IMG/VR virus record: IMGVR_UViG_3300006217_000013 | Span: 33,555 to 97,554 of that record | Source: a virus | Taxonomy: Duplodnaviria; Caudoviricetes | Reading direction: 5' to 3' (one strand) | Length of the DNA stretch: 64,000 nucleotides | In this document: one piece after another, positions 27,551-44,200 of the stretch | Layout: every line of letters starts with the position of its first letter | How positions within the stretch are numbered: the stretch's first letter is position 1 | The notes under the pieces: generated by a model | What the model was told of the DNA's origin: nothing | Seen by the model: the letters and a program-made list of their open reading frames with translations, nothing else | The model's database searches: none | Translations under genes and position numbers: made by a program

Positions 27551-27558
27551 AAAATATT

Positions 27559-28397
27559 TTACACATATAGAACAATACCTGTATTGCTATCCTTAATGTA
27601 TAGTCCCCTTAAAACAAATATATTAAGAAGCAATTTACCAAAGTGAATATATGTATTTTCTGTGTATTGAGGCGAATTATAATAATTATTTGCAAATTCA
27701 GATATTGGTGAAATATATTGCTTATATAGGTCATTATTGTATAATTGTTTTACAATATCGCATTCTAAAGGCTCATTTTCATGTAATAAGGCACACAGAG
27801 CCATAAAATCATAAATAGTGCTTTGTAAACTTTTAAATATATCATGAAAACCATTTGTTATGGTGTTTTGGTCTTTTAGTAATACCATTTGTCTTCTAAT
27901 AGAGATTGTTTCTGATAGAAGTCTAAGCATCTCAATGATTATATCACTACCATTTTCTCATTGATTAATTGGTATTTGTGATACTTATGTGCATTTCTAA
28001 AAGCCATATATTCATCTATCATTGAAAAGCCAAAAGCATATGTATAATCAGCTATCGTTTGGGGATTATGAGCAAGTTGGTTGATATGGTTTTAATCAAT
28101 TTGCTGAGATACTGTCTCAAAGTGCTGTATATGATATATTTCATGGGCGATTGTATTGATTTGATTATCTTTTGTCGTACCTATAAGCCTATCTGTAATA
28201 GAGATTTGAGATATTGGTTGATTATTTACACAAGAACAATCAACCCACGCATATTCTTTAGTTTCTCTTGACTCAAAATTTAGGCTATTAATTGAGATGA
28301 TGCCAATATCTGTAATAATGTTTTTAATTATGTTAATGAACTCATCAGGAATAGTCTGATTTGTCTTATTTATGATTTTCATATGTTTATACCTCAC
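27559..28397 (-). pseudogene. HEXXH metallopeptidase-like gene, disrupted
   Basis: IAHEIYHIQH; after the in-frame TAA at 28092 the frame continues DYTYAFGFSMIDEYMAF (cf. DLYFSFGLTYLDEYLAF in 33988-34851); a frameshift then links to ORF 27559-27930. Confidence 0.6.
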
Positions 28398-28409
28398 TTT
28401 TAGAAAGGA

Positions 28410-28682
28410 TTGATGATTCTGAATAATCTAAATACTTCATTACGAGAACAGAAAGATTTTATATTAAGTCATATATTATACGATTTATATTGTTGCCGCA
28501 ACCATATTATTACACTTAGACGTCATCCTCTACATATGGAGTTCTTTAGAGTATTTCCGGATGATTGTGAGTGTTCTGAGTTTGTACAAATTTTTAATTT
28601 ACATATGCTTGAACTAATGCAAAAATATGATTATGAAAATGCTGTTGGTATTCTTATAGAAGAATTAGAGAATATTGGTTAA
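28410..28682 (+). CDS. hypothetical protein
   Basis: ORF track; SD AGAAAGGA. Confidence 0.4.
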   Translation: MMILNNLNTSLREQKDFILSHILYDLYCCRNHIITLRRHPLHMEFFRVFPDDCECSEFVQIFNLHMLELMQKYDYENAVGILIEELENIG

Positions 28683-28732
28683 GTATATTATAACAGATTG
28701 AATAAAGTTTGACAAGAAAGTGAATATTTATA

Positions 28733-28963
28733 TTGTATAGTACAGCAGGAAAATGCAATGCTAAACAAACATATACAACTTATGGAATTGGATTAATCCG
28801 TTTCACTGAAGACAATTACATCTATATATCGAATGCTCTTTCCGATATTAGTGTTGACAAACTACAAATTGCAAATCTTACAAATTTATTAAATGAAAAT
28901 AATGTATCTCCTATTCATTTAAAAGATATAGTTGAAGATTTTTTAATAACAGAAAAGCAATAA
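28733..28963 (+). CDS. DUF6514-like small protein (start uncertain)
   Basis: YGI...DISVD...L..N.VSPIHLKDIVEDFL pattern. Confidence 0.55.
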   Translation: MYSTAGKCNAKQTYTTYGIGLIRFTEDNYIYISNALSDISVDKLQIANLTNLLNENNVSPIHLKDIVEDFLITEKQ

Positions 28964-28978
28964 GATAATATTTGGCTA

Positions 28979-29005
28979 TCTACTTACCATATTATGAAAA
29001 GTAGA
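28979..29005 (+). repeat. second copy of the 27-nt element at the 3' edge of the ribozyme core (27524-27550)
   Basis: TCTACTTACCATATTATGAAAAGTAGA vs TCTACTTGCCGTATTGTGAAAAGTAGA; 24/27 identical. Confidence 0.75.
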
Positions 29006-29239
29006 CTTTTAATATTTCCGTAATAAAATTGTTAGAGAAATTTAATGTAAAAAGTATTGTATTGTGGTATAGTAAATATATAAAGGAATATTGATGGTAT
29101 GTATGAAAATTACTAAACATTCTTTTCCTCTGCAATCATCTCATAACTATCGTATATTTTTTTGTATGCTATGAAGTGAGATATGCACTAAAACCACAAA
29201 TTATTCATATTATATAAGCAAAAATAGGAGGCGGTAGTT

Positions 29240-29671
29240 GTGTGTAAAATAGTTCATGTTGCGGTACAAATTGTGAACGATTGTATTGATAGAAATATTC
29301 CTATTAACTATTTAAAAGTTCAAAAATTAGCTTATCTTTGTCAATCATTTCATTTACAGAAATATGGTGTTCCCCTTGCTCCTGAAGATACTTTAAACTG
29401 GTCTTGCGGGGCAAGTTATAAGGAAATATATGCATTTTTTAAATTAAATGATTTATTAGAAGATAGTTTAACAGAACATATTGATAAAAATGTTGATTTA
29501 TTATCGTTCGAGAGAGAAACCATTAATTACATTATTAATACCTATGCTTTACGATCATTTGAAGAATTACGAGATTTTACAAAGATAGATACGCTATTTT
29601 CTTCTGACAATATAGGTGAAATAATATCTACATCATCAATTAAAGAACATTTTCAAAATCATCCATTATAA
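29240..29671 (+). CDS. Panacea (DUF4065/SocA-like) antitoxin-domain protein
   Basis: INYLKVQKLAYLCQ...LAPE...WSCG pattern. Confidence 0.7.
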   Translation: MCKIVHVAVQIVNDCIDRNIPINYLKVQKLAYLCQSFHLQKYGVPLAPEDTLNWSCGASYKEIYAFFKLNDLLEDSLTEHIDKNVDLLSFERETINYIINTYALRSFEELRDFTKIDTLFSSDNIGEIISTSSIKEHFQNHPL

Positions 29672-29680
29672 ATTTAGGAT

Positions 29681-30799
29681 ATGACAACAATGAATACAAA
29701 AGAAATTTTTGAGAGATTATATAATATAGAATTTAAATCAGATTTAACTCCGTCTATCATTAGAAATTATATTTCTCATCTTAATGGGAATGATATAAAA
29801 CAACTTCTTTCTGTAGTTTCTAATGATGGGGACAAACAATATGTTTTGGAAGATAATATGCGTAGAGCATTATCTTCCAAAAATATCAAACCGGACACTA
29901 AACATAAAATTGTGAATATATTGTCGTATTTAGATAATATATCGCAAATAGTGCCTGAAGAGGAATTTGATACAGGCATCCAAAATAAAAAGGCTATTGA
30001 AGATTGGGATTCTAGATTTGCAGTTATGGGAGCAATGATAGAAGATAATATAAAGATAACTGAAGAAATGCACAACAATCTTGAAGCTAAATATAACAAT
30101 ATAGATAAAAAGTTTCTCTTTACTGAAAATCAATATAAATCTATTGACAAAAAAGTATTTGATGTCCAAAATTCATTAAACGATGCAAAAAAAGATTTAC
30201 AAAAAGCAGCCAATCAGACTGGAAATGTTATAAATCAATCTATTACTATTTTAGGTATATTTGTTGCAATTATCGCTGTTTTCTTAGGCGGATTTGCTGG
30301 TATCACGATGTTAGACAAAATTAGCACCTTTAATACATATAAATTTTATCTAAGCATTGTGGTTGTCGGACATATAATGATTAATTTGATTTTTATGTTC
30401 ATTTATATGTTGTCGCGAATAATAGACAAAAGTGTGTCTGTTAATTGTAATAATTATGTCAAAGGTAAAATCTCCATTAATAATGACCTTGCAAAAGACA
30501 CTTGCCAAACGTGTTGTTTAAATAACTCTGTCTCGTGTCGGGCATATAATAAGCACTATCAAACGAATTATTCCACCTGTTCACTATTCAAGCGGTTGAA
30601 ATATAAATATCCATATATGTATTTTATAAATATAGTTGGATTTTTAGCAGAAATAGGATTATGCATTGGTTGGTTATTCGACGATATAATTATGTGCATC
30701 AAAAACGCAATGACACAGAATATTCAAGGGACGATATTTGTTAGTGCTTTAATTTCTTTATTCATAATTACCCTTGTTTTAGGATATAAGGATAGATGA
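29681..30799 (+). CDS. coiled-coil plus multi-pass membrane protein, cotranscribed with Panacea gene
   Basis: ITILGIFVAIIAVF helix and further hydrophobic segments. Confidence 0.65.
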   Translation: MTTMNTKEIFERLYNIEFKSDLTPSIIRNYISHLNGNDIKQLLSVVSNDGDKQYVLEDNMRRALSSKNIKPDTKHKIVNILSYLDNISQIVPEEEFDTGIQNKKAIEDWDSRFAVMGAMIEDNIKITEEMHNNLEAKYNNIDKKFLFTENQYKSIDKKVFDVQNSLNDAKKDLQKAANQTGNVINQSITILGIFVAIIAVFLGGFAGITMLDKISTFNTYKFYLSIVVVGHIMINLIFMFIYMLSRIIDKSVSVNCNNYVKGKISINNDLAKDTCQTCCLNNSVSCRAYNKHYQTNYSTCSLFKRLKYKYPYMYFINIVGFLAEIGLCIGWLFDDIIMCIKNAMTQNIQGTIFVSALISLFIITLVLGYKDR

Positions 30800-30861
30800 A
30801 TAAGTATTTTTATATAAAACAGATAGAAAACATTGTGGTAAAATAAAATAACTAAAGAGAC

Positions 30862-31170
30862 TTAGGAAAGTCTCTTTTTTATATGCGATAATACAGAAAG
30901 GATATGATTTTTTTGAATGAAACTATATTTGATAGGATAACATTGGAACAACTTGAAAAAATGGATACGAAAAGTACAATGATAACCACTAATAATGTTG
31001 CCCACGCTAACGTAATTGGACTGTTTTGGCTTGCAGTTTAATGTGTGCCTTTTCCGTTTCACTTGTATAAAAAATATAGTCGCGCCTATACCTGATATTA
31101 TTGTGATAATTCCACTTATTATAGAAATTATATCTTGATTGTCACATATAAATTGTATGATTCCTTGCAT
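30862..31170 (-). CDS. small membrane protein (possibly truncated)
   Basis: N-terminal TM segment; SD AAGGTGG. Confidence 0.4.
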   Translation of the reverse strand: MQGIIQFICDNQDIISIISGIITIISGIGATIFFIQVKRKRHTLNCKPKQSNYVSVGNIISGYHCTFRIHFFKLFQCYPIKYSFIQKNHILSVLSHIKKRLS

Positions 31171-31319
31171 GAAACCACCTTACCTTTAGTAATACTTTAT
31201 CTTATTATACCACATCTCCCCTATCTCGTCAATTATTGACTTGAGAACAGACAAAAAGAGCCATTCCATATAGGAACAGTTCTTCCCTGTTCTACGCTAC
31301 CCTATCTTCATTCAACAAA

Positions 31320-31497
31320 TCATATAAAAAGCTAATCCTTTAGGCGTTACTTTAGTAACACCACAGGCAAAGCCATTATGTCCTGTCGAATACTTAACAA
31401 CGAAATAACCTCGTTCACAATAGATCTGATAGGCTATATTGGATAGTCCATCACGGAACAATATACCTTTATCACGCAATAACTTCATTAAACGGTT
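31320..31497 (-). pseudogene. remnant of antirepressor KilA-C (ANT) domain
   Basis: Minus strand reads NRLMKLLRDKGIL..N.AYQ.YCERGYF.VK....TKVTPKGL with no start codon. Confidence 0.65.
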
Positions 31498-31624
31498 TAG
31501 AAAGGAATTGTTATTATGAATATAACTAATGCAAAAACCACACTTCCAAAGGATGATTTGACTTGGACAATAGATACAGATATTGAATTTAAATATAACT
31601 GTCCGCCTCTTGATTTTAGCAAGG

Positions 31625-32431
31625 CTACCGCTCTTGACGAAACTGAAATTCGTAAAATTTTAGTACATCTTTCATTACTGAATTTATAGAACTGAACTTA
31701 GGTGAAGCTATTCGATATGTTTGCATATCCTTTAAATAAGTATACAATTTTTCTATATTAGGGAAATAATATAAGACATGCTTGTCTACCAGTTCTTGCA
31801 ACGGAATGTCATGATTATTGTATAGGTTACACACATACAACCTTCCACAATAATCAAAAAGATGTCTATAAACAAATGTATCATTTTTAATATGAGTGAT
31901 TAATTCTTTGTTATATCTGGGTAAATGCCAATCTATCATCTCAACTTTAAGTTTGTTTATGTCATATGGATATGTTTTATTTACCTTTGATGTTATGATG
32001 TGCATATGAACAATTTCTATGATACGCGCATGATATTCGCTCCAATAATACATAGATTCAAAAAGTGGGTGCTCGATGATGTCTTTCCATGTTCCGCCAC
32101 AACATTCTGTATTAAAAATATTATAGTCAGCAAAATGTGTTAATTCATGTAGAATTGTGGCTACTGATGAACTTCTATCAAGTTTATACATTTGATGATT
32201 GATTAGTATTGTATGTTGCTCTGATGAGTTATTGGGATATATGTATGTACCATTTGGTTTGTTATCAAAATCATTTCGTTTATGAAGAGAAAATTTATTA
32301 TAATCAGCAATGATATCATTCGAGAAATATATATTTATTTCTTTTGTTTCAATATGAAATACTAATTGATAATATGCCTTGCAATACTCTATCATATTAT
32401 TTATGTTCTCATCATTTGTTATTAAGCTCAT
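31625..32431 (-). CDS. HEXXH zinc metallopeptidase-like protein
   Basis: ILHELTHFADY...WSEYHA. Confidence 0.65.
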   Translation of the reverse strand: MSLITNDENINNMIEYCKAYYQLVFHIETKEINIYFSNDIIADYNKFSLHKRNDFDNKPNGTYIYPNNSSEQHTILINHQMYKLDRSSSVATILHELTHFADYNIFNTECCGGTWKDIIEHPLFESMYYWSEYHARIIEIVHMHIITSKVNKTYPYDINKLKVEMIDWHLPRYNKELITHIKNDTFVYRHLFDYCGRLYVCNLYNNHDIPLQELVDKHVLYYFPNIEKLYTYLKDMQTYRIASPKFSSINSVMKDVLKFYEFQFRQER

Positions 32432-32493
32432 ATTGCATAAATACCCTTTCTAAGATCTTATTTTTCATTATATCACATCTTTGGTTTTTGATT

Positions 32494-32567
32494 ATTACAT
32501 TTGTGTTACAAATAGTGAAAACGGGTTGACTTCAGTGTTACCAAATGTTATTATATTTGTGTTACCA
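32494..32567 (+). promoter_or_regulatory. promoter of RHH module 1 with upstream TGTAAH-N5-TGTAAH box and GTGTTACCA direct-repeat operators
   Basis: Box 32494-32510; TTGACT -35; repeats at 32535-43 and 32559-67. Confidence 0.6.
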
Positions 32568-32583
32568 GAAGTGAGGTGATGAA

Positions 32584-32760
32584 ATGTCTGGTAAAAAAAT
32601 GGGTAGACCAACAGACAATCCTCGCACTAATAACACTCGCATTAGAATGACAGATGAAGAAGTCGAAAAACTTAACTACTGTTGTCAAAAAACAGGTATG
32701 ACTAAAGCTGATGTTATTAGGTTGGGAATACAGATGGTCTATGACGGTATAAAAAAATAA
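32584..32760 (+). CDS. ribbon-helix-helix (Arc/CopG-like) regulator, 58 aa (missing from ORF track)
   Basis: MSGKKMGRPTDNPRTNNTRIRMTDEE..L..CC...GMTKADVIR. Confidence 0.8.
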   Translation: MSGKKMGRPTDNPRTNNTRIRMTDEEVEKLNYCCQKTGMTKADVIRLGIQMVYDGIKK

Positions 32761-32829
32761 CAGTTACTCCCCTACCAAAGATTGTAACTGTTATTTAAAC
32801 ACCACTCCATAAGGAGATGTAATAAATAT

Positions 32830-32858
32830 ATTATATTACGTTTCCTTTGGAATGTCAA
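32830..32858 (-). promoter_or_regulatory. antisense sigma-A promoter between RHH gene and downstream genes
   Basis: Perfect TTGACA-17-TATAAT on the minus strand. Confidence 0.7.
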
Positions 32859-32883
32859 GTTTTATTTAAAGGAGATGTATTAA

Positions 32884-33189
32884 ATGAAAGAAAATGTAAA
32901 AACAACAACATTAACAGAGCAGGAGAAACACCACTTATTCTTGCTCCATGAACACGCAGACAATTTAGAACGTACAGTATCCAAGTGCGATGCGGTAACA
33001 GACATATTTGAGGAAGCTCTTGAAAGCATGAATGACAAAGGAATAAGACCGTCAGATGACACCACAATTATTGACATTGTAAAGGTCATTCATGATTACA
33101 GTAATCAAGCTAAACAAGGCATAAGAGAACTTGAAAGTGATTTATCTAAGTTTCATATTAATAGTAGAGGCGGTGAGTGTCATGAATGA
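32884..33189 (+). CDS. hypothetical helical protein
   Basis: ORF track; SD AAGGAG. Confidence 0.65.
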   Translation: MKENVKTTTLTEQEKHHLFLLHEHADNLERTVSKCDAVTDIFEEALESMNDKGIRPSDDTTIIDIVKVIHDYSNQAKQGIRELESDLSKFHINSRGGECHE

Positions 33190-33931
33190 ACTACAGATAT
33201 TCACCAATGATATGTTTGGTCAGATTAGAACTGTACAGGCTGATGATAAAGTGCTGTTTTGTGGCAATGATGTAGCACAAGCACTTGGATATTCCCGTCC
33301 TTGAGACGCAATCCGTACTCACTGTAAGGGGGCGTCAAAACACCGCACCCCTACTATAAGCGGTTATCAAGATATGACCTTTATCACAGAGGGCGACTTA
33401 TACCGCCTTATAATACGCTCTAAGCTTCCATCGGCAGAAAAATTTGAGGCTTGGGTTTTTGATGAAATACTCCCCACTATCCGTAAACACGGTATGTATG
33501 CCACGGATGAATTACTTGCTAATCCCGATTTGGCTATTGCAACGTTTCAGGCATTGAAAGACGAGCGGGAAAAGAATAAGGTATTAGAAGCACAGATACA
33601 TAAACAACGACCGCTTGTAGACTTTGCTAATACAGTGCAATCAACTGAGGATAATATTCTTGTAAGGGAGTGTTCAAAGTTAGCAAGTAATTATATAGGC
33701 ATTGATATTGGCGAGAAAGGCTTATATCAAAAGTTGCGTGATTGGAAAATGTTATTAAAAAGACGGAATGAGCCTTCTAAATTGGCATATAAGCAAGGTA
33801 TTCTTGAATATGTGGAAAGAATAATATATAAAGGTGGTATGCCCTGCCTTGCTCATACAACTAAGGTTACTCCGAAAGGACAGGTTTATATTATCAATAA
33901 GTTAATTAAGGAATATAATAATGTAGCATAA
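33182..33931 (+). pseudogene. BRO-N plus KilA-C phage antirepressor with premature stop
   Basis: MNELQIFTNDMFGQIRTV...DVAQALGYSRP*DAIRTHCK; in-frame TGA at 33302-33304; continues into ORF 33374-33931. Confidence 0.85.
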
Positions 33932-33940
33932 TTATATAGA

Positions 33941-33973
33941 AAAATAAACCGTAGCCTAATACGGTTTATTTTT
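33941..33973. terminator. bidirectional intrinsic terminator inside the intron
   Basis: AAAATAAACCGTA/TACGGTTTATTTT between convergent genes. Confidence 0.7.
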
Positions 33974-33987
33974 GTACAATTTATTAT

Positions 33988-34851
33988 TTAGAGTGTAGTA
34001 AAATCAAATTTCCCATTAATATCACAAATCTTAATATTTGCAATCTTAAATATGCTAAACAATACTTCTCCACATTCTACAATCATTTCCTTTGAAAGAT
34101 TTTGAGGATATTCTGCCATATTATCATCTATCCATAGTTGGATATTGTTAATATATTTCAGCAGCAAGGGATTTTTAGATAACCTTCCAATAATCTCATT
34201 GGCATATTCTTTAACTTTGCTGTTTTTATATGCCATTGTCTGTAGTATAGTATATATAAATAACTCAAAAGATTTTTGATGTGTATCAAATATATTATAC
34301 GCAGGATACTGCCATTTAGAAATATCTTCTACCATTTTTAATACCTTATCAGAATAGTTATAAATATTATTCCCATCTAAATCCTTGCCTAATAGATTCA
34401 CCAAAGCAGGTGAAAATTTATTTCCTGTACAAAATGCTAAATATTCGTCTAAATATGTAAGTCCAAATGAAAAATATAAATCATTAGTGGTTACAATATG
34501 TTGCTTAACTTTTAAGTATTCAGAATAGTTCAAAACATCTGAAAACATTTCAAAGTTTTTAGCATGTCCTACTTCATGTGCCAAATATGTTAAGTATAAT
34601 TCATTTGCAGTATCATGCATACTTAATAATTTTGATGTCAAAAACATATCAACACATTTTTTATTTTTTATGATATTTCCTTGTGTTAGTCCCATATAAT
34701 CATCATTATCCGAAACGATACTGATTCGATTTATTGATGATACATTAAAGTGTTTAGCTATAGTATCTAAATCTTGTTCTAAAAACGAAGGAAATTGTTT
34801 CCCGTTATTTATTGACACTTTTACTGTTTTATTATTTATATTAAAATACAT
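33988..34851 (-). CDS. HEXXH zinc metallopeptidase-like protein
   Basis: LAHEVGHAKN...LDEYLAF. Confidence 0.65.
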   Translation of the reverse strand: MYFNINNKTVKVSINNGKQFPSFLEQDLDTIAKHFNVSSINRISIVSDNDDYMGLTQGNIIKNKKCVDMFLTSKLLSMHDTANELYLTYLAHEVGHAKNFEMFSDVLNYSEYLKVKQHIVTTNDLYFSFGLTYLDEYLAFCTGNKFSPALVNLLGKDLDGNNIYNYSDKVLKMVEDISKWQYPAYNIFDTHQKSFELFIYTILQTMAYKNSKVKEYANEIIGRLSKNPLLLKYINNIQLWIDDNMAEYPQNLSKEMIVECGEVLFSIFKIANIKICDINGKFDFTTL

Positions 34852-35071
34852 TTTAAGCCTCCATAGAAAGGAATTTAATTGCTATGCAATCTCTTACAAA
34901 TTATGATAATTACATTGATTCTCATAGACGAAATGCTCACATTATCCTAAAAGGTGAGCCTGTTATTGTTGATGCAGATAAATTATATAAAGAACAATTA
35001 CCTACTGCAAACAAGTCGCGATAGTAATTTTCTACCACTTATACCCACAATTTTCGCAGTGCCATTGATGA

Positions 35072-35887
35072 TTATTTTAGGTATTTTTCTAAATTATCAC
35101 TACTTAATATTTCTGCAAAGTCCTGTAAGTAACGTAAATTTATTAAAGCTGCTTCTGTATTTAACATCGACCTACTCACGTTTTCTGTTATTTTATTCAA
35201 ATTAACAGAAAGCAATTGGTAATGTATTTGTGCTAAATCAATACAGTCCTCAAAGTCTTTTGTTAATTCTTTTATCGAATAGACTGTTTTTAAATTATTT
35301 TGTAAATAATTATATAATTCTTGTATTGCACTATTATAAACTTCCTTGTTATATAGTTCTTTGATATTTTCAATATTCTCATTCAGTTTAGAAAAAGATG
35401 AAATAAATGCATTTATTTCTAAAATAACTTTGGGTATTTTTGAATTTATAATATTTATAATATTATCCACACTTTCAATGTTATAATCTATATTATAATA
35501 AAACTCATTTATTTTTTTAACCCTATCATCTAAGTTGACCGTCAGTTCTTTAAGATCATCTACTATTATATTAGGTAATAGTAATTTGTGACATATTATA
35601 TATATACCACTTATTTTATTGCAACATTGATTATATGCTTGTATTTTGTTTCTTTTAAGAGGCACATATATTATGACCCATGAAATAAATGCACTAGCAC
35701 TTATTCCCAGCATTATATTGATTAAAAATTCACTCCACTTTAAACATATTTTGTACTCAAAAATTTTTAGAGTTATTGCAGCAACAATGCATATAATAGC
35801 AATTCCCATTAAAATAATGAGTATATTTTTTTCATTATACGATGCTGTCTTTTTTCTTATTGTTATTTTCCCTCTTTTCATTTGCAC
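35072..35887 (-). CDS. hypothetical membrane protein (2 N-terminal TM helices)
   Basis: ORF track; hydrophobic segments. Confidence 0.6.
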   Translation of the reverse strand: MQMKRGKITIRKKTASYNEKNILIILMGIAIICIVAAITLKIFEYKICLKWSEFLINIMLGISASAFISWVIIYVPLKRNKIQAYNQCCNKISGIYIICHKLLLPNIIVDDLKELTVNLDDRVKKINEFYYNIDYNIESVDNIINIINSKIPKVILEINAFISSFSKLNENIENIKELYNKEVYNSAIQELYNYLQNNLKTVYSIKELTKDFEDCIDLAQIHYQLLSVNLNKITENVSRSMLNTEAALINLRYLQDFAEILSSDNLEKYLK

Positions 35888-36009
35888 ATCACCTCTTAGT
35901 CCAACTATATCACATTTTAGTAGTTATTTCAAGATGTTTTAATTACTGCACTATTACACGAAATAGTACACTGAACATATAGATACTTTCAAATGATTAT
36001 CGGGCTTTT

Positions 36010-36050
36010 ATTACATTTGTGTTACAAATCTCTTTGAGGGGTTGACTTTT
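36010..36050 (+). promoter_or_regulatory. orphan copy of RHH-module promoter head
   Basis: ATTACATTTGTGTTACAAAT identical to 32494-32513, then GGGTTGACT, with no RHH gene following. Confidence 0.55.
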
Positions 36051-36111
36051 GTGGATATAAAAAGAAGAGGAAATATAACTATATCTCCTCTTCCCTATCA
36101 AGCTTATATCC

Positions 36112-36639
36112 TTAACTTATCATTTTTAACATACACATAATAATGCGTTGTCTAATACCCTTCTTGCGGATATTCTTAAAGTTATGTTTAAATATAGTAA
36201 CTATTTTATCCATAAAATCTTCGGGTAAAATGCTTTGTTTAAACTCGTTACATTCTTTACAGGTGCATTGAAAATTTTCTATTGCATTTTCACCACCTTT
36301 AGACAAAGGAATAATATGGTCTATTGTCATCTCTGTGTAAACGAGAGGTCTTCCACATAAAGCACACTTACCATCTGCTTGTTTATAGATATATTTTCGC
36401 ACCATATCACTAATGGCACAGCGTTTAGTTTTACTTTTAGATGGTTTCTTGTTAGCTGAGGCATAGTCAGACACATAGAAAGTTTTCTTGTATTTTTGAG
36501 GTATTATCTCATAGAACGCTTTTGCTTCTGATTCGGATGGAAAGGTTTGAATTGTCTTTTTATAGTTAGCGCCCTTAATTTCATTATTAGGGTATCTGCG
36601 TAGATATGTTCCACAGCCATTTGTTATTACATACTGCAT
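36112..36639 (-). CDS. HNH endonuclease
   Basis: CALCG...TIDHIIPLSKGG.N...N....CKECN..K. Confidence 0.9.
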   Translation of the reverse strand: MQYVITNGCGTYLRRYPNNEIKGANYKKTIQTFPSESEAKAFYEIIPQKYKKTFYVSDYASANKKPSKSKTKRCAISDMVRKYIYKQADGKCALCGRPLVYTEMTIDHIIPLSKGGENAIENFQCTCKECNEFKQSILPEDFMDKIVTIFKHNFKNIRKKGIRQRIIMCMLKMIS

Positions 36640-36653
36640 ATTAGACCCCCTAC

Positions 36654-37577
36654 TTAAATCCAGTCTTTAACATCAACCATTTTATAAAACTGTGATACCT
36701 CAACGCTAAAGTCAAAAGACATGAGCATCAATGTTTCCAAATAAGGAACAAATTTTTTAATAGGTGTGTCAGCTTTGCCAACCAAATCAAGCATGGTTTC
36801 TAATGCGGTCGCCATATCCTTTAATTCACCTAACTTAGCATAAGCAACAGGGTCGCGGCTTACTGTAACATAATTTGTTTTATTATCTGGTTTCTTTTCA
36901 GGCAAAGTCTTATCCATATAAGGCACATACTTGAAACATTCTGCATTGCTAATATCACATTTAAGTAGTTCAGCTAATTTAAGACAACCTTTGTAGGTAA
37001 GCAATATTAGATGAGAAACCTGTCTATGGTGTTTTGTATTGAGATATTTAAACTGCTGTAATTCAGCGCCTTCTAATAAGTAGTATTCTGTTCCTTTGCT
37101 TAGTGAACTGCTTACATAGTAGTTTATCATTCCCTGATTAGCTCCTGTGAAGTATTCAAAGTCTTTTATGGTAATTACCTTTTCGCCGTTCCAAAACTTA
37201 TCAAAGTAGACTGATTCGTTTTGAATAGATGGCTTTTGTCTGAAATATGAATTAACAAGTTCACGCTGTACCGTCCACGCTAAATCGTCTGTAAAGGATT
37301 TTACAAGCATTAGGTAGCCCGTTTCTGTTATGAGAATTAAACCATTTGGAGCCTTAATTCCGAACTCTTTTTGGGCTTCGTCCGTTTTTCGGACGAAGTA
37401 ATCTACACTTTCAATAAAGTGTGTTCTGTTGTCATTGAAGCGTTTTCTTGCCGTGCCGTTTGGTCTGTTATGTACTGTATCAATGTCTTTGAGTGTAACT
37501 ACACGCTGACCGTCATATTCCTTGATTTGTAATGGTTGGTTGTTTACCGTTAGTGTTAATTTGTTTAAATCTTTCAT
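36654..37577 (-). CDS. ORF6N-domain antirepressor-like protein
   Basis: IKEYDGQRVVTLKDIDTVH.RP.GTARKRFNDN...TETGYLMLVKSFTDDLAW.VQRELVN.YF. Confidence 0.85.
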   Translation of the reverse strand: MKDLNKLTLTVNNQPLQIKEYDGQRVVTLKDIDTVHNRPNGTARKRFNDNRTHFIESVDYFVRKTDEAQKEFGIKAPNGLILITETGYLMLVKSFTDDLAWTVQRELVNSYFRQKPSIQNESVYFDKFWNGEKVITIKDFEYFTGANQGMINYYVSSSLSKGTEYYLLEGAELQQFKYLNTKHHRQVSHLILLTYKGCLKLAELLKCDISNAECFKYVPYMDKTLPEKKPDNKTNYVTVSRDPVAYAKLGELKDMATALETMLDLVGKADTPIKKFVPYLETLMLMSFDFSVEVSQFYKMVDVKDWI

Positions 37578-37603
37578 TATACACATCTCCTTTTGATTTG
37601 ATA

Positions 37604-37632
37604 TTGACAAAAGAAGCTGTCCATAGTATAAT
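37604..37632 (+). promoter_or_regulatory. antisense sigma-A promoter between RHH and ORF6N genes
   Basis: Perfect TTGACA-17-TATAAT. Confidence 0.7.
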
Positions 37633-37697
37633 TAGATTTATAGACGAGTTCTCTTGTCTTGGTGTAGAAGGATAAACGTCACCGTCCAAAGTTGCGT

Positions 37698-37883
37698 TTA
37701 TTCTTCTTTTTGTATGCTATCCCTTAATCTATAAAAACCTTGTCGTAGAGCCTCTGCTTTGGTTACATTCGCTTTTTTGCAATACTCTTCTAAATCGGAA
37801 TATGTGGTGTTGTCAAAACGAACTGTAATCTTAATTCCTTTAGGATTTTCAGATAAAGGACGTCCGATTTTCTTTTCAGGCAC
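37698..37883 (-). CDS. ribbon-helix-helix regulator
   Basis: GRPLSENPK..KITVRFD...L..YC....TKAEALR. Confidence 0.8.
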   Translation of the reverse strand: MPEKKIGRPLSENPKGIKITVRFDNTTYSDLEEYCKKANVTKAEALRQGFYRLRDSIQKEE

Positions 37884-37904
37884 TTCTTCACCTCCAATAC
37901 TTTT

Positions 37905-37980
37905 TGCCTGTCAATAATTATTATAGTTTATGACTGTCAAAAAGTCAATGGATTGGATGGTTTTGTAACAAAAATGTAAT
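37905..37980 (-). promoter_or_regulatory. promoter of RHH module 2
   Basis: TTGACT-17-TATAAT; TTGACAG(T/G)CA repeats at 37905-14 and 37931-40; box TGTAAC-AAAAA-TGTAAT at 37964-80. Confidence 0.65.
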
Positions 37981-38067
37981 GTTTGTTTGTTTTTTGTAAT
38001 ACATAAAATGTTGAAATATTATGCTTATTGTAATAAAATAAATAATATATATTATTATTAAATTATA

Positions 38068-40122
38068 ATGGAGTTTAATATGGCAAAAAGAAAGCATGAG
38101 GCATTGACAGTCGTAAAATTAATAAACGAAATATTAGTAAATCAGTTAAAAATACCTTTCCAAAATATAGCAAATGACATTACAATTCCATCATATTTAG
38201 GGTCATATCGTCCTGATATTTTAATCTCGGCGACTGCTTATAGTATAACGAATGAAGAACAATATGTAAAGAATTTACTTGCATATGCTGAAGTAAAGGA
38301 TAATTGCACTGTCAACGATAAAGATTGGCAGAATGCAATTTCCCAAGGTAAGCTTAAAGCTTTAAAATTAAAGTTGCCTTATTTTATTGTTACAAATTAT
38401 GTTGTTACATATTTTTATAATACACAAACATTAGAACAACTTACTTTAGATGGCAATCCTATTCGTGAATTTCAAACAATGGATATTTATCGTCTTATTA
38501 AAAGTCAGTTGAGTAAAAAAAACACCTCTAATACAATAATTACTAACCCTGATTCAAAATCTGCTATTTCTGAAGCAATATTTAATAAAAAGCTTTGGGA
38601 ATTAGAGAGTGTCTACAGAGAAATTAATTTTAAAAACAATGTTCAAAAAATTGACTTTACAATAGGGCTTATTGCTCTTGAATATTTTGAGGAAAAACAA
38701 GAGATGGATGGAAATAAAGATGTAACGAAAGTTTATTGGTCGACATGTAATGATAATATAGCCGAAAAAGTAAAAAATAATTTGAGTGGATATATTAGTC
38801 GTTTAGAAAATGAAACAACATTCAATGAATTTAAAAAAGTTATGGAAGTTGTTCGTTTGTCAATAGAGGGGAATTCTAACACAAAGGCAATTATTGATGT
38901 AGATAATACGAAAAAAATTTATAATATCGTGGATTCAATGAAACCCTTGCATGGTACTGGTTTTGATTTATTTGGAGCGGTTTATGAGAAATTTGCATCT
39001 ACTAAAGAGAAGAGTGATTTTGGAGAATATTTTACACGAAGACACTATACTCATATTTTTGCCAAGTTATTATTGCAAGATGAAAAAGTATATAATATAG
39101 ACCGAGAGTTTTCTATCATCGACCCAGCCTGCGGAACAGGTGGCTTTCTGACTGAAAGTTTTAAAGTGCTATTGTCAAATTACCAAAAAAGTGGCACACT
39201 TTCTCCAGATGCAATTCACTTTTTGTCCAAGAAATGTTTTTATGGAGTTGATGTAAAAGAAGATAACATATCATATACAAAGTTAAACATGTTCCTTGTT
39301 GGCGATGGTCATACTCACATGTATGTTGAAAATACATTGAAACCGAGTAAAGAAACAAGTAAAAAAATATTATCACAAAGATTTCAATATGCCATAACTA
39401 ACCCGCCTTATGGTAGTGGAACAATTGCAGCTGATACAAACGCTATTTCATCTACCAGACGAGAAATTGCATTTATATGTGAAATCATTAAGTTGCTTAA
39501 AATAGGTGGAAAAGGATGTATTATAACTCCTGATGGAATTTTAGAAAATCCATCATATAAAGCATTTAGAAATGAAATTCTTGAAAAATGTGATATATAT
39601 GCTATTGTATCTTTGCCAAAATTTGCTTTTGCTCCCTACACCAAAGAAAAAACTTATGCTCTATTTATCAAAAAGCGTAGCGAGAAAATAACACAAAAAC
39701 AACACTCCCCTATTTGGATGTATATAATTGACAATGATGGATTTGCAAATTCTGATCAACGATTTCCAACTAGTCTTCGTGATGAGCACACTGGTTGGTT
39801 ACATAATGAAATTTTAGGTTGGATAGATAATAACGGTATTGAACAATTAAGTCTACTCGAAAAAAGATGGCTAACATTTGATGATGCAGATACTAATGGA
39901 ACAACATGGATAAATGAAAAAGGTATTCCAATAACAAAGAGAAAAGGCGGAAATATTTCTATTAATATGATTATACGCGATAAATACACTACATTATTAC
40001 CCGAATATTATTTGCGTCCATATATTCCAAAGTATGCTTATGAAAATGACTTTAACAACGAACTTAATATAATAAAAAAACAAATGGAGGATGTTCTTCA
40101 TGAATTTTCTGGAAATCTTTAA
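38068..40122 (+). CDS. fused restriction endonuclease / N6-adenine methyltransferase (type IIB/IIG-like RM subunit)
   Basis: N-terminal RPDI...AEVK nuclease motif; GEYFT, DPACGTGGFL and NPPY MTase motifs. Confidence 0.85.
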   Translation: MEFNMAKRKHEALTVVKLINEILVNQLKIPFQNIANDITIPSYLGSYRPDILISATAYSITNEEQYVKNLLAYAEVKDNCTVNDKDWQNAISQGKLKALKLKLPYFIVTNYVVTYFYNTQTLEQLTLDGNPIREFQTMDIYRLIKSQLSKKNTSNTIITNPDSKSAISEAIFNKKLWELESVYREINFKNNVQKIDFTIGLIALEYFEEKQEMDGNKDVTKVYWSTCNDNIAEKVKNNLSGYISRLENETTFNEFKKVMEVVRLSIEGNSNTKAIIDVDNTKKIYNIVDSMKPLHGTGFDLFGAVYEKFASTKEKSDFGEYFTRRHYTHIFAKLLLQDEKVYNIDREFSIIDPACGTGGFLTESFKVLLSNYQKSGTLSPDAIHFLSKKCFYGVDVKEDNISYTKLNMFLVGDGHTHMYVENTLKPSKETSKKILSQRFQYAITNPPYGSGTIAADTNAISSTRREIAFICEIIKLLKIGGKGCIITPDGILENPSYKAFRNEILEKCDIYAIVSLPKFAFAPYTKEKTYALFIKKRSEKITQKQHSPIWMYIIDNDGFANSDQRFPTSLRDEHTGWLHNEILGWIDNNGIEQLSLLEKRWLTFDDADTNGTTWINEKGIPITKRKGGNISINMIIRDKYTTLLPEYYLRPYIPKYAYENDFNNELNIIKKQMEDVLHEFSGNL

Positions 40123-40657
40123 TCCTATTGAAAAGGGGAACTATGCGCTAACAGATGAGGCGATATATATGTCTATTCTAAATCATGACCAAATGATTCC
40201 ATTATGGGGTGGAAATAAAGAGCACACGACAATTGATCGTATGGTTTCCAAGTCTGCAAAAACAAAGAAAGGAGTTCCAATTAAAGTATTTAGTGGTGAA
40301 GGTATTATTATTAGTTTGGACGGGAGTGCTGGAAATATGACATATAAAACAAATGAAGAATTCGCACTAAACCATCATGCCGGCTTTATTACCGTTCGTG
40401 AAGATATAAAAACGGATATAAATTTAAAATTTTTTTCTCTGTTTTATCAAAATAGATATAAACATCTTAGCGTTAGCGATGGCTCTAAAACATTGTCTTT
40501 AAAACAGATATATAATGAAGAAATACATCTTCCAACAATAGACATACAAAACAATATAATGAAGAAATTAAATACTTGTCTTAACGCAATCAATAAATTT
40601 CATAGTTTGGAGAATCAGTTATATGAATTAGTTTCAAGAGAAATAATTTGCCCCTGA
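40100..40657 (+). CDS. RM specificity subunit (single TRD, HsdS-like)
   Basis: IIISLDGSAG...LPTIDIQNNI pattern; overlaps the MTase gene. Confidence 0.7.
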   Translation: MNFLEIFNPIEKGNYALTDEAIYMSILNHDQMIPLWGGNKEHTTIDRMVSKSAKTKKGVPIKVFSGEGIIISLDGSAGNMTYKTNEEFALNHHAGFITVREDIKTDINLKFFSLFYQNRYKHLSVSDGSKTLSLKQIYNEEIHLPTIDIQNNIMKKLNTCLNAINKFHSLENQLYELVSREIICP

Positions 40658-40701
40658 TTTAAGAGACTATTTAAAAATAAATATCTACTTTATAATCCAT
40701 A

Positions 40702-41196
40702 TCAATTCCCCGGTTTCCACTTATGTCCGCACTTCTGGCAGACATTTCTTGGGCTACCGCTACCTATAAAACCTGTTACAATACTATATCCCCTATTTGT
40801 TGTAGCAACTGAAAAAGAACCACATTTAGGACATTGTACAGCATTAGGGTGAGCGTCTCTGTATGCTTGCTCTTTTTGAGCACGTTCAATACGTTCTTGT
40901 GCTAATCTCAACTCATATTCTGTTGGCGGCTTGTATGTATTGTCAGGTTTCCAATGTTCACCCATCACAACTTTAAATGCTAATTGCTCCTCATACTCTT
41001 TTTTATATTGAGCCATTTCTTCATCTGATGCATTATCTACACATTCAAGTTCAGCCTTGTAGATGCAGTTAGGACAATATTCAACATCATATTCTAAAAC
41101 AATCCAATGGCATTTTGGACATCTTTTCAATATTACCACTTCTTCCCTTAATAAGATAATATAAGTATATACTAAAACTGATAATTCGTCAACCAA
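40702..41196 (-). CDS. double zinc-ribbon protein (true start probably TTG near 41130)
   Basis: CPKC..CPNC and [14 protein letters not shown]; minus-strand TTGACG-17-TATACT promoter. Confidence 0.7.
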
Positions 41197-41198
41197 AA

Positions 41199-41271
41199 TT
41201 CATTAGTCTCACAATCTAATGAAATCTTATTTTATGCTTCGCAAACATGAAATACGTGTAATTTTAGTCCG
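41199..41271 (+). ncRNA. 3' terminal module of the intron (P9-like hairpins and omega-G)
   Basis: Hairpins 41199-41223 and 41228-41254; ACGUGUA(41254-60) complementary to 27113-19; AGUCC(41266-70) complementary to GGACU(27341-45); terminal G41271. Confidence 0.65.
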
Positions 41272-44200
41272 ATAGTTAAAACAATTAACGGCGATTTAAC
41301 TGCTTTTGGAAAAACTTTATTGTCTATTAATAAAGAAATTGATAATACGTCAAAAGTAGCCAATTTGCAAATTGCTAACTTTAGTGGGCTTGGTAATAGA
41401 ATTGATGCTTATAATAATGTCACAGCAAAAAGTGCAGAAAAACAAGAACAATTACGCAATACTATCCCCATAGATACATTTCAAGCTTATACCCAAACTT
41501 TAGGAGATAATCAGGCAACTCTTGAAGGTTATCAAAAATATCTTGGTCAAACAGCCACTGGATTTGCAGGTGTGCGTAATGCAATCGCAAACTTCAACAC
41601 CATGCAATCAAAAGGCGTTGAACAGCAAAATGCATACGCACAGGCTATAGGGACAGGCAACACTCATTTAGGTCAGTATCTTACTAACCTAAACGGTGCA
41701 CAAGCCACTATGGGCGGATATATCTCCTCCCTATTCAAAGCAAAAGTTGCTACAATCGGTTTACAAGCTGCAAGCATAGCCCTTAACATGGCTCTCACAA
41801 TGGGTATATCCTTTGCTATACAGACAGCTATTAAAGCTCTCTCACATCTGTATAACATACAGGATAAACTTTCAGAGAAGACTAAGGAATTAACAAGCAA
41901 TATCAAGTCTGCTAATGATGAAATTAAGTCCAACAATAGCGAAATTGAAGACCTCAACAAAAAGTTAGATGAAAACGCAAGCAGATACGATGAACTCATC
42001 CGGAAAAAGCAGGAATCTGAACTAACCACAGAAGAAAGCAAAGAACTTGAGCATATCCAAAATATTAATGCTGAATTGCTTAACCAAAAGAACATCTTAG
42101 AGGAAAACAACCGCCTAAAGAAAGAACAAGCAGCACAAGACGCTCAGGATTTAGCAGAACTGTTATTAAAGCAAGAGAGCGTTTCTGTTGCTATGGATAG
42201 TTCTCAAGGCAAAATGCTTGAATGGCTCACAAACTTTGAGACTAAATACCTATTCCCTATTGCTAAAGGAGTAGATGCTATTTCTCAAGCAATGCACGCA
42301 CTTGGCTTGATTAGTGATGAAACTTATGAAAAAATAACTAATTTAACCAGTGGTAAATCAATTATATCTGCTATTTGGGGTGCTGATATAACACAGGATT
42401 CTGGCGACAGTATTGTTAAAAACTTTGAAAAAGCACAGGCTGAAATTGATAAGATACGCCATAGATACGGTGGAAAGATTGATTCTTCAACCAACCTTAC
42501 AAGCAAAGACGCTGAAACACTTAAAGAACAAAAGGCACTTATTGCGGGTTATGTAGAAGATATTCAACCGTTGTATCAGCAGATTGATAATTCTATCAAT
42601 GCTATTGAGGCTGATGAAGAATTGGCTTCTGCTAATAAAGAACAATTAGCAGAATTAAAAGCTATGCGTGATAGATACGCAGAAATTTTAGGCTATACAA
42701 AAGATATTTCTGACACATCATCTTCTGATGGAATATCTGGAAGCATACAAAAGACCAATAAAGGACTTAGTGATACTCAAAAGAAGCTTAGAGATATCGA
42801 GCGTTCAGAAGCTTTAACCAAACTAAAGTACCAGCTTGACCAACTACGCCTTCCTATTACCAAGGTTGACAATGCATTATCCCTACTCAATAATACGCTT
42901 GACCTTACAGCAGAGAACGATTACGAGACAAAACTTTACACAACGTCTCGTATGCTTGAATTGGCACAGCAGAAATCAGCGTTATTACGTGATGAATTTG
43001 CTCAGTTAGACGCACAGGAATACAGCAGTGCAGACACAGCAAACGAAATAGCCACTCGTATGAAGTCTGTTGCTGACAGCATTGCAGAAACAAACAAGGA
43101 TATTATCAATTATGGCAAGAACATAGCTGAGTATTACACATCTGCTTTAACGTCCGTTAGTTCGCTTTCTAAGACCACAATTGACGAAGCAACCAACTTA
43201 CTTGACCGTAACATCAAATCACTTTCTGAGGGCGGTTTGACAGGCTTACAGTTTAATCTATCTCCTACTATTCCTAAGTCCGCACTTGACAAGCAGAAAG
43301 AGCAAAATCGCAGTATGGAAACAGAAATGCAGTCATACTATGACACTATTGCTCAAATGCAAAAAGTGGCTCTTGATTTAGAATATCAGGAACAAATGCA
43401 GTCTTATGCAGAACAGAGGGCTGAATTAGATAATACCCTTAATAAGTCAAAGACCGAGATACAAAAAGCATCTAAGGACATTCAAACTGAAACAAAAGAG
43501 TTTACCAATGCCGAACAGACAACTTTAAACAATCTGCATGATTGGATTAGGAATAATCCTCTTGCTCCACCTGCTCTTGACAGTTCATGGAACGATAGGG
43601 TTACAGAGATTGAAGATTGGGCAAAAAGAGTTCAGCAAGCATTAGGTGGTATTTCATCAAGCCCTTGGTCAGATAGTGTGACAGGCATAAGTCCTAAGCT
43701 AAACAGTCAGAAAGTTCTGAACACTGCTGCTGCATTTAATGGTACTCCTTATGTATGGGGTGGCTCAAACCTTACTGATAAAGGACTTGACTGCTCAGGA
43801 TATATTTATCAAGTATTAAAGAAATTAGGTTATACAGGCGAAAGAACGACTGCTGACGGTTTCAGAAAAGTCGGTACTAAGATTAATAAGTCTGAAATGC
43901 AGACGGGCGACTTACTGTTCTTTGATTACGGACATGATGGCGAAGCTGACCATATAGGTATTTATGCTGGTAATGGTCAAATGTGGCATAGTTCAGGTAA
44001 TTCAAGCAATACGGCTGATAATCCGGGCAAAGGTGTCCATTTAGCCGACATTACTTCGTATTACGAAAAAGCCTTAATGCAAGTAAATAGAAACCCATAT
44101 GTTAAAGCATATGCTAAAGGCACAAAGGATTATGGCAACTTTGATGGCATCGCAGGTGAAAATAACAAACCAGAACTGTTAATAAACAAAGAAACAGGAG

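Follow-up and report, generated by a model that had tools for sequence, protein, structure and literature searches.

Phage group I introns are generally regarded as compact, with lengths from a few hundred bases up to roughly 1 kb and at most one homing-endonuclease gene. In the sunY (nrdD) intron of phage T4, the distant 3' terminus is reportedly recognised through P9.0, P10 and a pairing between a 3'-terminal element and the core (Michel et al. 1992, Genes Dev 6:1373). The IStrons CdISt1 and BcISt1 begin with a group I ribozyme at the 5' end; their passenger follows the P9.x subdomains, and beyond it, at the far end, comes the 3' splice site (PMC4227781). The hexacoral mitochondrial ND5-717 group I intron spans 18-19 kb with many genes inside (PMC6545197), and in the natural trans-spliced group I introns of Isoetes cox1 (PMC2731911) and Prasinoderma rnl (PMC3873408) the halves occupy separate or rearranged loci.

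We analysed a 64,000-nt stretch of phage DNA, called the window here. Probably (with a probability of roughly 0.7), its tape-measure gene is interrupted by a group I intron of 14,258 nt (27014-41271), whose 3' acceptor module is the 89 bases 41199-41287, predicted to dock through three pairings on a ribozyme 14 kb upstream. The layout is a stretched version of the phage T4 type: a complete catalytic core, P7 included, occupies 27014 to about 27445, wholly at the 5' end, followed by coding DNA and, after the P9.x region, by a short 3' terminal element. The T4 sunY intron likewise has its core at the 5' end, with the coding sequence placed after the P9 region and ahead of the 3' splice site. In sunY, however, this amounts to about 0.8 kb with one sense-strand homing-endonuclease gene, whereas the window intron has about 13.7 kb of accessory genes (~18, on both strands) that have promoters and terminators of their own; its P9.0 has 5 bp, and a contact between a hairpin loop and an internal loop of P9.1 would act as the tether.

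The IStrons share with the window a 5' ribozyme, a passenger downstream of P9.x and a 3' splice site beyond it. Their passenger is of the IS200/IS605 type (TnpA/TnpB) and 1-2 kb long (PMC4227781), whereas Pfam scans covering 18 ORFs, the cargo ORFs of at least 90 aa among them, found no transposase and no integrase; their cores are IA2-like with P7.1 and P7.2 (PMC4227781), both of which the window core lacks. Like the window intron, ND5-717 is a group I intron that exceeds 10 kb and has many unrelated genes between its ribozyme parts, but it is mitochondrial, holds its cargo in P8, and has a split core, a permuted precursor and back-splicing (PMC6545197), whereas the phage core is whole. Like Isoetes cox1 and Prasinoderma rnl, an active intron in the window would need long-range RNA-RNA association; unlike their halves, its parts are collinear on one strand.

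The interrupted gene and its relatives

The exon junction 27013|41272 is in frame in all five introns compared, and in uninterrupted homologues the reading frame passes straight through the insertion site. The comparison set consists of the window and four independent IMG/VR introns (R1, R3, R4 and R7) at the same tape-measure codon (after K-x-x-G), which amounts to five complete introns from three or four lineages; the closest relatives, on the contigs encoding P0002, P0004 and P0119, were left out. The relatives' introns measure 1,191, 2,842, 3,455 and 10,571 nt and differ in cargo (1.2 to 10.6 kb). Their cores are 74-81% identical to that of the window, and they can be aligned to about 27445 and then only in the final 40-75 nt of the intron. 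Searches of both intron ends against the phage collection by megablast and blastn, and of an exact 20-mer of the core against IMG/VR, returned no match, and protein-based searches for the locus, started from either exon (IMG/VR, GTDB genomes, JGI metagenomes), returned only distant tape-measure genes or another intron family. We also considered the end repeats TGAAATAC and ATACGT as attachment sites or target-site duplications, a reading dropped because joining there would break the frame and because relatives lack these repeats.

A complete group I core at the 5' end

The local elements of the ribozyme are as follows.

27008-27013, plus strand: P1 5' strand GCUGGU, the last 6 nt of exon 1, pairing with GCCAGC at 27055-60
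27105-27119, plus strand: P2.1, local hairpin ACGUG-AAAUA-CACGU, covarying (AUGCG/CGCAU, UCGUG/CACGA and CUCAAUG/CAUUGAG in relatives)
27284-27289, plus strand: P7 5' strand G[U]AGCG, local, invariant in six introns, between P6 and P3' as group I topology demands
27335-27340, plus strand: P7 3' strand CGCUC and G27340, with the invariant J8/7 AAUAUG before it; its five pairs are all present in six of six sequences
27346-27359, plus strand: P9 hairpin CCUG/CAGG, covarying (for example CUCUG/CAGAG in R4)
27392-27438, plus strand: P9.1 domain, formed by CUUAUC/GAUAAG and enclosing the hairpin 27411-29; the receptor AUUGUGA (27404-10) lies in its internal loop

All helices of the order P3-P4-P6-P7-P3'-P8-P7', with the P3/P7 pseudoknot of group I, were found. 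In this local core 89.4% of cells are paired and 33 pairs have both sides changed, a result equalled by 0 of 500 shuffles, with slid controls reaching 36-47%. P3, P6a and P8 show such both-side changes, three of the four P3 pairs being compensatory; P7 and J8/7 are invariant. P1 has the group I wobble, U27013.G27055, at the 5' splice site, and its counterpart in relatives, GUCGGU/GCCGAC, contributes two compensatory pairs. Every invariant core position is intact in the window intron. The fold is an ordinary, complete group I core with a 3' extension, and not the atypical variant that the earlier note had described.

As one of two candidates, that note had drawn P7 across 14 kb, from GGACU and AGUCC, in a fold with no room for P9 and with ACGUGUA/UACACGU as an additional dock. 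GGACU/AGUCC does resemble the R/S consensus GACUA/UAGUC, and the core goes unrecognised by Rfam: RF00028 gave no match to the window, to the 5' module alone or to R7, even when E values up to 10 were allowed. Of 16 other loci with the same P/Q motif pair it recognised 3, at the place of that pair, and so has a low sensitivity for phage introns. AGUCC/GGACU cannot be P7, however, because both strands lie 3' of P8, whereas the P3-P7 pseudoknot topology demands that the 5' strand of P7 precede P3', and the positions of P3 and P8 are fixed by compensatory changes. P7 exists locally together with J8/7, and P9 comes next, with P9a and the P9.1 domain behind it, contradicting the view that no room was left for P9. 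A second proposed P7, GACAAC/GUUGUC, uses 27521-26, past the point where the alignment of the relatives ends. The ACGUGUA pairing is also at chance level (see below), and the earlier fold as a whole is extremely improbable.

Pairings between the core and the 3' module

The following elements lie in the 3' module, beside it, or opposite it in the core.

27040-27054, plus strand: P10 guide, the internal guide that would align exon 2; the P1 3' strand follows directly
27341-27345, plus strand: P9.0 5' strand GGACU, directly after P7
41164-41192, minus strand: promoter-like site TTGACG-17-TATACT of the antisense zinc-ribbon gene, a consensus match only, abutting the docking hairpin
41199-41223, plus strand: 3' docking hairpin predicted by folding, with an 8-bp stem and a 9-nt loop (41207-15)
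41228-41254, plus strand: second small hairpin in the spacer, window-specific, predicted by folding only
41254-41260, plus strand: ACGUGUA, proposed earlier as a docking element, rejected
41266-41270, plus strand: P9.0 3' strand AGUCC, directly before G41271
41271, plus strand: omega G, the last intron nucleotide
41272-41287, plus strand: exon 2 start and P10 target, with 12 bp at 41276-87 and possibly also 41272-73 with 27053-54

Three complementarities to the core had been claimed, and all are located as described (ACGTGTA 41254-60/TACACGT 27113-19, AGTCC 41266-70/GGACT 27341-45, and 27040-51/41276-87). Two of the three, P10 and AGUCC/GGACU, hold as pairings, and with them the idea of a small detached 3' splice-site module brought by base pairing to a ribozyme 14 kb away.

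AGUCC/GGACU is a real long-range pairing that occupies the position of P9.0 and not, as claimed, that of P7. Across the five introns, P9.0 is paired in 24 of 25 cells over the 5 nt before the terminal G, as against 3-15 of 25 in slid controls, and the terminal G itself is found at the same position in 5/5. The 3' strands of the relatives (AGUAC, AGUAU, AGUAU and AGUUC) face 5' strands GUACU, GUGCU, GCACU and GGACU; the second pair is G-C in the window, U-A in R1 and R3, G.U in R7 and a C/A mismatch in R4, so that the covariation of P9.0 consists of one position with both sides changed. A 5-bp complement is trivial alone, with 12 of 2412 G sites offering 5/5 pairs, and validation comes from the relatives. 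Within the intron, AGU[CU]CG occurs only at 41266.

For P10, TAATTGTTTTAA (27040-51) is the exact complement of TTAAAACAATTA (41276-87). The duplex energy of -9.9 kcal/mol was equalled by 2 of 2000 shuffles, and of the 12 G sites whose P9.0 is fully paired, 41271 stands far ahead in P10. In the window and one relative P10 is above chance (strong in two of five introns), but in R1, R3 and R7 it is weak and no better than in shuffles. P10 strength does not follow cargo size, and the idea of a longer P10 for bigger cargo was rejected. Scans for P9.0/P10 and for motifs found no alternative acceptors within the cargo.

The third complementarity, ACGUGUA/UACACGU, is at chance level: at least 7 Watson-Crick pairs with the 5' module were found in 1888 of 2000 shuffled 3' modules (94%). 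Its own pairing is no better than cross pairing, it does not covary among the relatives, and its 5' partner is one strand of the covarying local hairpin P2.1.

A pairing absent from the earlier note was found instead in the predicted hairpin at 41199-41223, where the loop sequence UCACAAU (41209-15) is complementary to the receptor AUUGUGA in the P9.1 domain. The pair covaries in all four introns having a P9.1 domain (the window, R1, R3 and R4), and R7 has neither the domain nor the hairpin. Each loop forms 7, 7, 6 and 7 bp with its own receptor, compared with 3-5 bp between lineages; between R1 and R4, three docking pairs are changed on both sides. The hairpin stems of R1, R3 and R4 are unrelated in sequence, and the loop is always 9 nt. 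Shuffling gave P = 0.016-0.046 per intron, values that are somewhat optimistic because the receptor segment was chosen after seeing the duplexes. UCACAAU stands in a hairpin loop only once in the window, at 41209. The spacer that follows the hairpin is 8-43 nt long and unconserved among relatives. In the window it includes GCAAACAU (41241-48), an 8-bp complement to the P8 3' strand (27319-26), which was rejected as window-specific and unconserved, the R1 spacer being only 8 nt long.

In a DNA-level reading of the same letters, ATTGTGA...TCACAAT, an inverted repeat, and the 41201-21 palindrome would be recombination or transposition ends for the cargo, or an operator for the adjacent antisense promoter. 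The cargo is indeed bracketed by this 7-bp repeat, and the palindrome sits immediately upstream of the -35 hexamer in the promoter on the minus strand (41192-64). We consider such a role very unlikely: the 5' copy is some 35 nt within the ribozyme's conserved domain and not at the cargo boundary, the cargo ORFs scanned encode no recombinase of the kinds named above, and an operator needs no 9-nt spacer complementary to the ribozyme across lineages with unrelated stems. The R4 docking also includes a G.U pair, which is functional in RNA only.

Acting on RNA, the three pairings would divide the work among them. The 9-nt loop of the hairpin would dock by 7 bp (27404-10/41209-15) in the internal loop of P9.1; the 5 bp of P9.0 (27341-45/41266-70) would stack beside P7 and place G41271 in the guanosine site; and P10 (27040-51/41276-87) would align exon 2 next to exon 1.

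Probable splicing across the cargo

The intron in this phage could instead be dead, its cargo too large or the provirus defective, with the pairings as relics and the tape measure absent or made as two polypeptides. The metagenomic assembly is incomplete (about 63% complete), and exon 1 has its own stop codon at 27133. Two polypeptides are hard to reconcile with an exon 2 frame that is open only from 41251 and has its first start codon, a TTG, at 41320, with no clear ribosome-binding site before it by eye. Decay would also sit poorly with the unbroken set of invariant core positions, with a P9.0 of 5/5 Watson-Crick pairs, a docking helix of 7/7 and a 12-bp P10 that fits the phage's own exon 2, or with the same features being kept in relatives with 10.6 kb of cargo. 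A dead intron is therefore quite unlikely.

A continuous precursor has two intrinsic terminators of the sense strand in its path.

30854-30877: second intrinsic terminator in the cargo
33941-33973, both strands: bidirectional intrinsic terminator in the cargo; its stem of 14 bp has an A-run on one side and a T-run on the other (z = -6.55)

The bidirectional terminator had been noted before and is confirmed. The many opposing promoters reported with it are a weaker case: 114 were found, several with perfect consensus, but the count is barely above that in shuffles (96.6 +/- 9.6).

These signals bear on how the exons would be joined. With effective internal terminators, a 5' RNA with exon 1 and the ribozyme could end in the cargo, and a second RNA, started from a cargo promoter, could supply exon 2 together with the 3' module; the docking loop, P9.0 and P10 would then serve as an intermolecular address, and the exons of two molecules would be joined. 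Besides the two terminators, a 13-bp hairpin stands just behind the ribozyme at 27455-92, and the small relatives, too, have terminator-like hairpins in the sense strand. Promoters in the sense direction are available within the cargo, for example at 38011-39 before methylase genes, with a weak candidate at 41133-60; about 24-26 bp of intermolecular pairing is on offer, and three-piece group I systems function in vitro (PMC2588497). However, the halves are collinear, in order and on the same strand in the window, R1, R3, R4 and R7, whereas natural cases show separated or rearranged halves (PMC2731911, PMC3873408). The plus strand of 40100-41271 has no promoter-like site of at least 10/12, counts there being at shuffle level, and in R1 the terminators are stronger antisense than sense. 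The same module is used by relatives whose cargo is only 1.2-3.5 kb, and a two-RNA explanation is therefore not needed. Trans-splicing thus appears unlikely, and we infer that the RNA is spliced in cis, from a late transcript that would read through the cargo.

Were trans-splicing true here, it would to our knowledge be the first natural case for a group I intron of a phage or a bacterium, and the cargo promoters could gate production of an essential tail protein. If the RNA is spliced, an essential structural gene would rely on a ribozyme that reaches over 14 kb of promoters, terminators and antisense genes to its acceptor, and the acceptor module would be the part that enables this reach. 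Since Rfam-type models miss this intron family, split tape-measure genes may be misread as broken. The covarying docking loop and the 5-bp P9.0 provide a concrete, mutable address, and with it the reach of a group I ribozyme, and the intron as a safe slot for swappable defence genes, become testable.

Related introns and the ribozyme core

Rfam detected no group I intron at the window intron (27014-41271) and does not support membership of the group I family, and neither similarity searches of phage records nor protein-seeded locus searches returned a close relative. We scanned IMG/VR for the P/Q-like motif pair TGCGGGAA ... AATCCGCAGG, and four of the 114 loci obtained resemble the 5' module (the ribozyme core, 27014 to about 27445), with 74-81% identity across about 400 nt; two tighter patterns added one independent member and two contigs identical to an existing one. 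Extension of the loci gave five complete introns, from three or four lineages only, and one (R2) that is cut by a contig end. All share one insertion point, the 3' side of a K-x-x-G codon in a tape-measure gene, with exon junctions in frame throughout, and intron-free homologues of 2,300-2,900 aa continue uninterrupted across the site.

Introns compared: length; P9.0 (5' strand/3' strand); candidate docking pair (P9.1 receptor/3' hairpin loop)
Window: 14,258 nt; GGACU/AGUCC; AUUGUGA (27404-10)/UCACAAU (41209-15)
R1: 2,842 nt; GUACU/AGUAC; UGUGGAA/UUCCACA
R3: 10,571 nt; GUGCU/AGUAU; UGUGGA/UCCACA
R4: 3,455 nt; GCACU/AGUAU; UGUUUGG/UCAAACA
R7: 1,191 nt; GGACU/AGUUC; no P9.1 domain and no docking hairpin
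R2: cut by contig end, no length

A group I structure drawn by hand was scored against an alignment of the six 5' modules. In this structure 89.4% of cells are paired, with both-side changes in 33 of 78 pairs; none of 500 shuffles matches these values, and controls slid out of register reach 36-47% of cells. By this comparison the core is complete and local, at the 5' end of the intron. P1, which has U.G at the junction, is GCUGGU/GCCAGC in the window and GUCGGU/GCCGAC in relatives; P3 (27136-39 with 27295-98) shows compensatory changes in three of four pairs, and P8 (27300-06 with 27322-28) covaries. P4, P6, the J8/7 sequence AAUAUG and P7 (G27284 and A27286-G27289 with C27335-C27339) are invariant. 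On the 3' side of P7 follow P9 (27346-59), P9a and a P9.1 domain ending near 27445, where the relatives' alignment stops. RNAalifold also proposes a pairing of GGUAA (27121-25, in the junction after P2.1) with UUAUC (27393-97, in the P9.1 5' strand), which is kept in five of six introns with no both-side change and competes with the local P9.1 stem.

Pairings of the remote 3' splice site

An earlier note on this DNA had claimed three complementarities between the core and the 3' module (41199-41287), and all are present exactly where it placed them:

27113-19, TACACGT, with 41254-60, ACGTGTA
27341-45, GGACT, with 41266-70, AGTCC, followed by G41271
27040-51, TAATTGTTTTAA, with 41276-87, TTAAAACAATTA (P10)

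The second pairing holds across the five complete introns, with 24 of 25 cells paired in register versus 3-15 when either strand is slid, but its reading as a long-range P7 is excluded. The P7 5' strand must fall between P6 and P3', and GGACU falls after P8, so it could not be a P7 strand pairing with the intron 3' end; the alternative P7 offered by the note, GACAAC/GUUGUC, uses 27521-26, within unconserved cargo. By definition, the strands of P9.0 adjoin the 3' strand of P7 on one side and the terminal G on the other. GGACU and AGUCC occupy these positions, immediately 3' of the P7 3' strand and immediately 5' of the terminal G, so the pairing is P9.0. Its second pair is G-C in the window, U-A in R1 and R3, G.U in R7 and a C/A mismatch in R4.

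The 12-bp P10 is above chance in the window, where 2 of 2000 shuffles attain its -9.9 kcal/mol; an equivalent 12-bp duplex in R4 has -11.9 kcal/mol, which no shuffle attains. P10 is weak in R1, R3 and R7, whose guides pair with shuffled sequence at least as well as with their own exon 2. A long P10 is therefore no general adaptation of the family; its strength does not follow cargo size. Full P9.0 complementarity occurs at 12 of 2412 G sites of the window, among which 41271 has by far the best P10 (-9.9 versus -5.7 for the next), and inside the intron AGU[CU]CG occurs at 41266 only.

As a docking pair, ACGUGUA/UACACGU is at chance level: in 94% of trials a shuffled 3' module attains at least seven Watson-Crick pairs at some place in the 5' module. 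UACACGU, the 5' partner, belongs as 3' strand to a local hairpin, P2.1 (ACGUG/CACGU), which covaries in relatives (AUGCG/CGCAU, UCGUG/CACGA, CUCAAUG/CAUUGAG), and in the other introns a foreign 3' module pairs with the corresponding segment at least as well as the own one.

When each intron's last 60 nt were screened against its own 5' module, the matches led to a single homologous segment within the internal loop of the P9.1 domain; this receptor forms a pairing, probably used for docking, that the note missed. In the window, R1, R3 and R4 its partner sits in a 9-nt hairpin loop, on stems unrelated in sequence (CAUUAG/CUAAUG in the window; AUACUA/UAGUGU, UUGGUA/UACCAA and UUUUUCAUAA/UUAUGAAAAA in relatives). 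Own loop and receptor pair over 7, 7, 6 and 7 bp versus 3-5 bp between the three lineages, and R1 and R4 differ on both sides of three pairs. A shuffled loop pairs over as great a length in 1.6-4.6% of trials, depending on the intron; these values are somewhat generous since the receptor was picked after the duplexes were seen. Within the window, UCACAAU lies in a hairpin loop at 41209 only. The docking, P9.0 and P10 pairings and the exon junction are demonstrated at the level of sequence comparison. The spacer of the 3' module also holds a perfect, window-specific 8-bp complement (41241-48, GCAAACAU) to the P8 3' strand (27319-26, AUGUUUGC), which could mis-pair with the core.

Splicing route and known systems

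We infer that the window intron is catalytic. In its most likely mode of working, the ribozyme would fold from about the first 430 nt, the 3' hairpin would dock onto the P9.1 internal loop, P9.0 would form beside P7 and present G41271 to the guanosine site, and P10 would align exon 2 beside exon 1, held in P1, for the second step.

Cis-splicing, from a late transcript that reads through the cargo, is our preferred route. A two-RNA route is conceivable given two sense-strand intrinsic terminators inside the intron (30854-77; 33941-73, z = -6.55), a 13-bp hairpin directly behind the ribozyme and predicted sense-direction cargo promoters (e.g. 38011-39). However, the small relatives use the same 3' module and hold terminator-like hairpins too, the intron parts are collinear on one strand, and no good plus-strand promoter lies near the 3' module, promoter counts being at shuffle level; we consider trans-splicing unlikely.

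The layout is shared with the T4 sunY (nrdD) intron, which Michel et al. reportedly described in 1992 with a remote 3' junction (cited in PMC10136302). It is also shared with IStrons, whose passenger lies behind P9.2 (PMC4227781), as here behind P9.1; the cargo ORFs scanned yielded no transposase, and for this reason the window intron is not classed as an IStron. It is unlike the giant coral ND5-717 intron, in which cargo splits the core at P8 and back-splicing removes the intron (PMC6545197). As far as can be told, three things are new relative to published cases: the scale of the cargo, 13.7 kb with many genes on both strands; a P9.0 of 5 bp; and the covarying tether formed by a hairpin loop.

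Cargo and spread

The window DNA is a portion of a 97.5-kb IMG/VR contig. The tape-measure 5' portion ends in a 664-aa ORF (25139-27133, PhageMin_Tail), and its long 3' portion, open from 41251 with TTG at 41320 as first start codon, flanks the 3' module opposite a minus-strand zinc-ribbon gene. About 13.7-14 kb of accessory genes on both strands separate the two parts, including a Panacea-domain protein, Bro-N/KilAC, ORF6N, an HNH nuclease and an N6 methylase with specificity subunit. Within the cargo, a ctRNA_pT181-like antisense RNA match (32743-32836 (-); 45.6 bits, under the gathering score of 56, E = 7e-4) adjoins a perfect-consensus promoter at 32858-30.

Cargo varies among the relatives and is defence-like in three: R1 and R3 carry GmrSD-like genes, whose products have the GmrSD N-terminal domain, and R4 carries a gene for ToxN, the toxin of a type III toxin-antitoxin pair. 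R7 carries only the antisense zinc-ribbon gene, whose small product has a conserved zinc ribbon at its C terminus (CPxC ... CxxCG[HY]xW; only weak zinc-ribbon matches in Pfam). This gene comes last before the 3' splice site in the window and R7, and it is present also in a different intron family of tape-measure genes; the cargo of R1, R3 and R4 likewise closes with an antisense gene, but an unrelated one.

Cargo genes and second intron family (L, loci)
Window 40702-41196 (-), L160 3160-3624 (-), L015 11649-12137 (-): antisense zinc-ribbon gene
L152 3175-4164, L154 15815-16822 (-), L040 6666-7268 (-): defence-like cargo genes of R1, R3, R4
L015 11150-12070; also L011, L014, L020, L023: second intron family

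The second intron family, of about 900 nt, is inserted in related tape-measure genes only a few nucleotides away from the site used here (...KNF), with recognisable P, Q, R, S-like motifs (AAUUGCUGGAA, AAUCAGCAGC, GUUCAUCGACUAC, AAGGUAUAGUG) and a 3' splice site about 500 nt downstream of the core; an Rfam search did not detect it. A third, G+C-richer intervening sequence (L016 9400-9800, on a short contig) follows an exon-1-like tape-measure end (...GRGRSNDFAL*).

Many further exon-1-like proteins in a large protein collection stop at the same residue. Three of them (P0002, P0004, P0119) carry the window intron's 40-aa read-through peptide, the product of its first 120 nt, yet are merely 40-73% identical to the window exon-1 protein. 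The intron is therefore better conserved than the gene that hosts it, a pattern that suggests horizontal spread (homing) in recent times.
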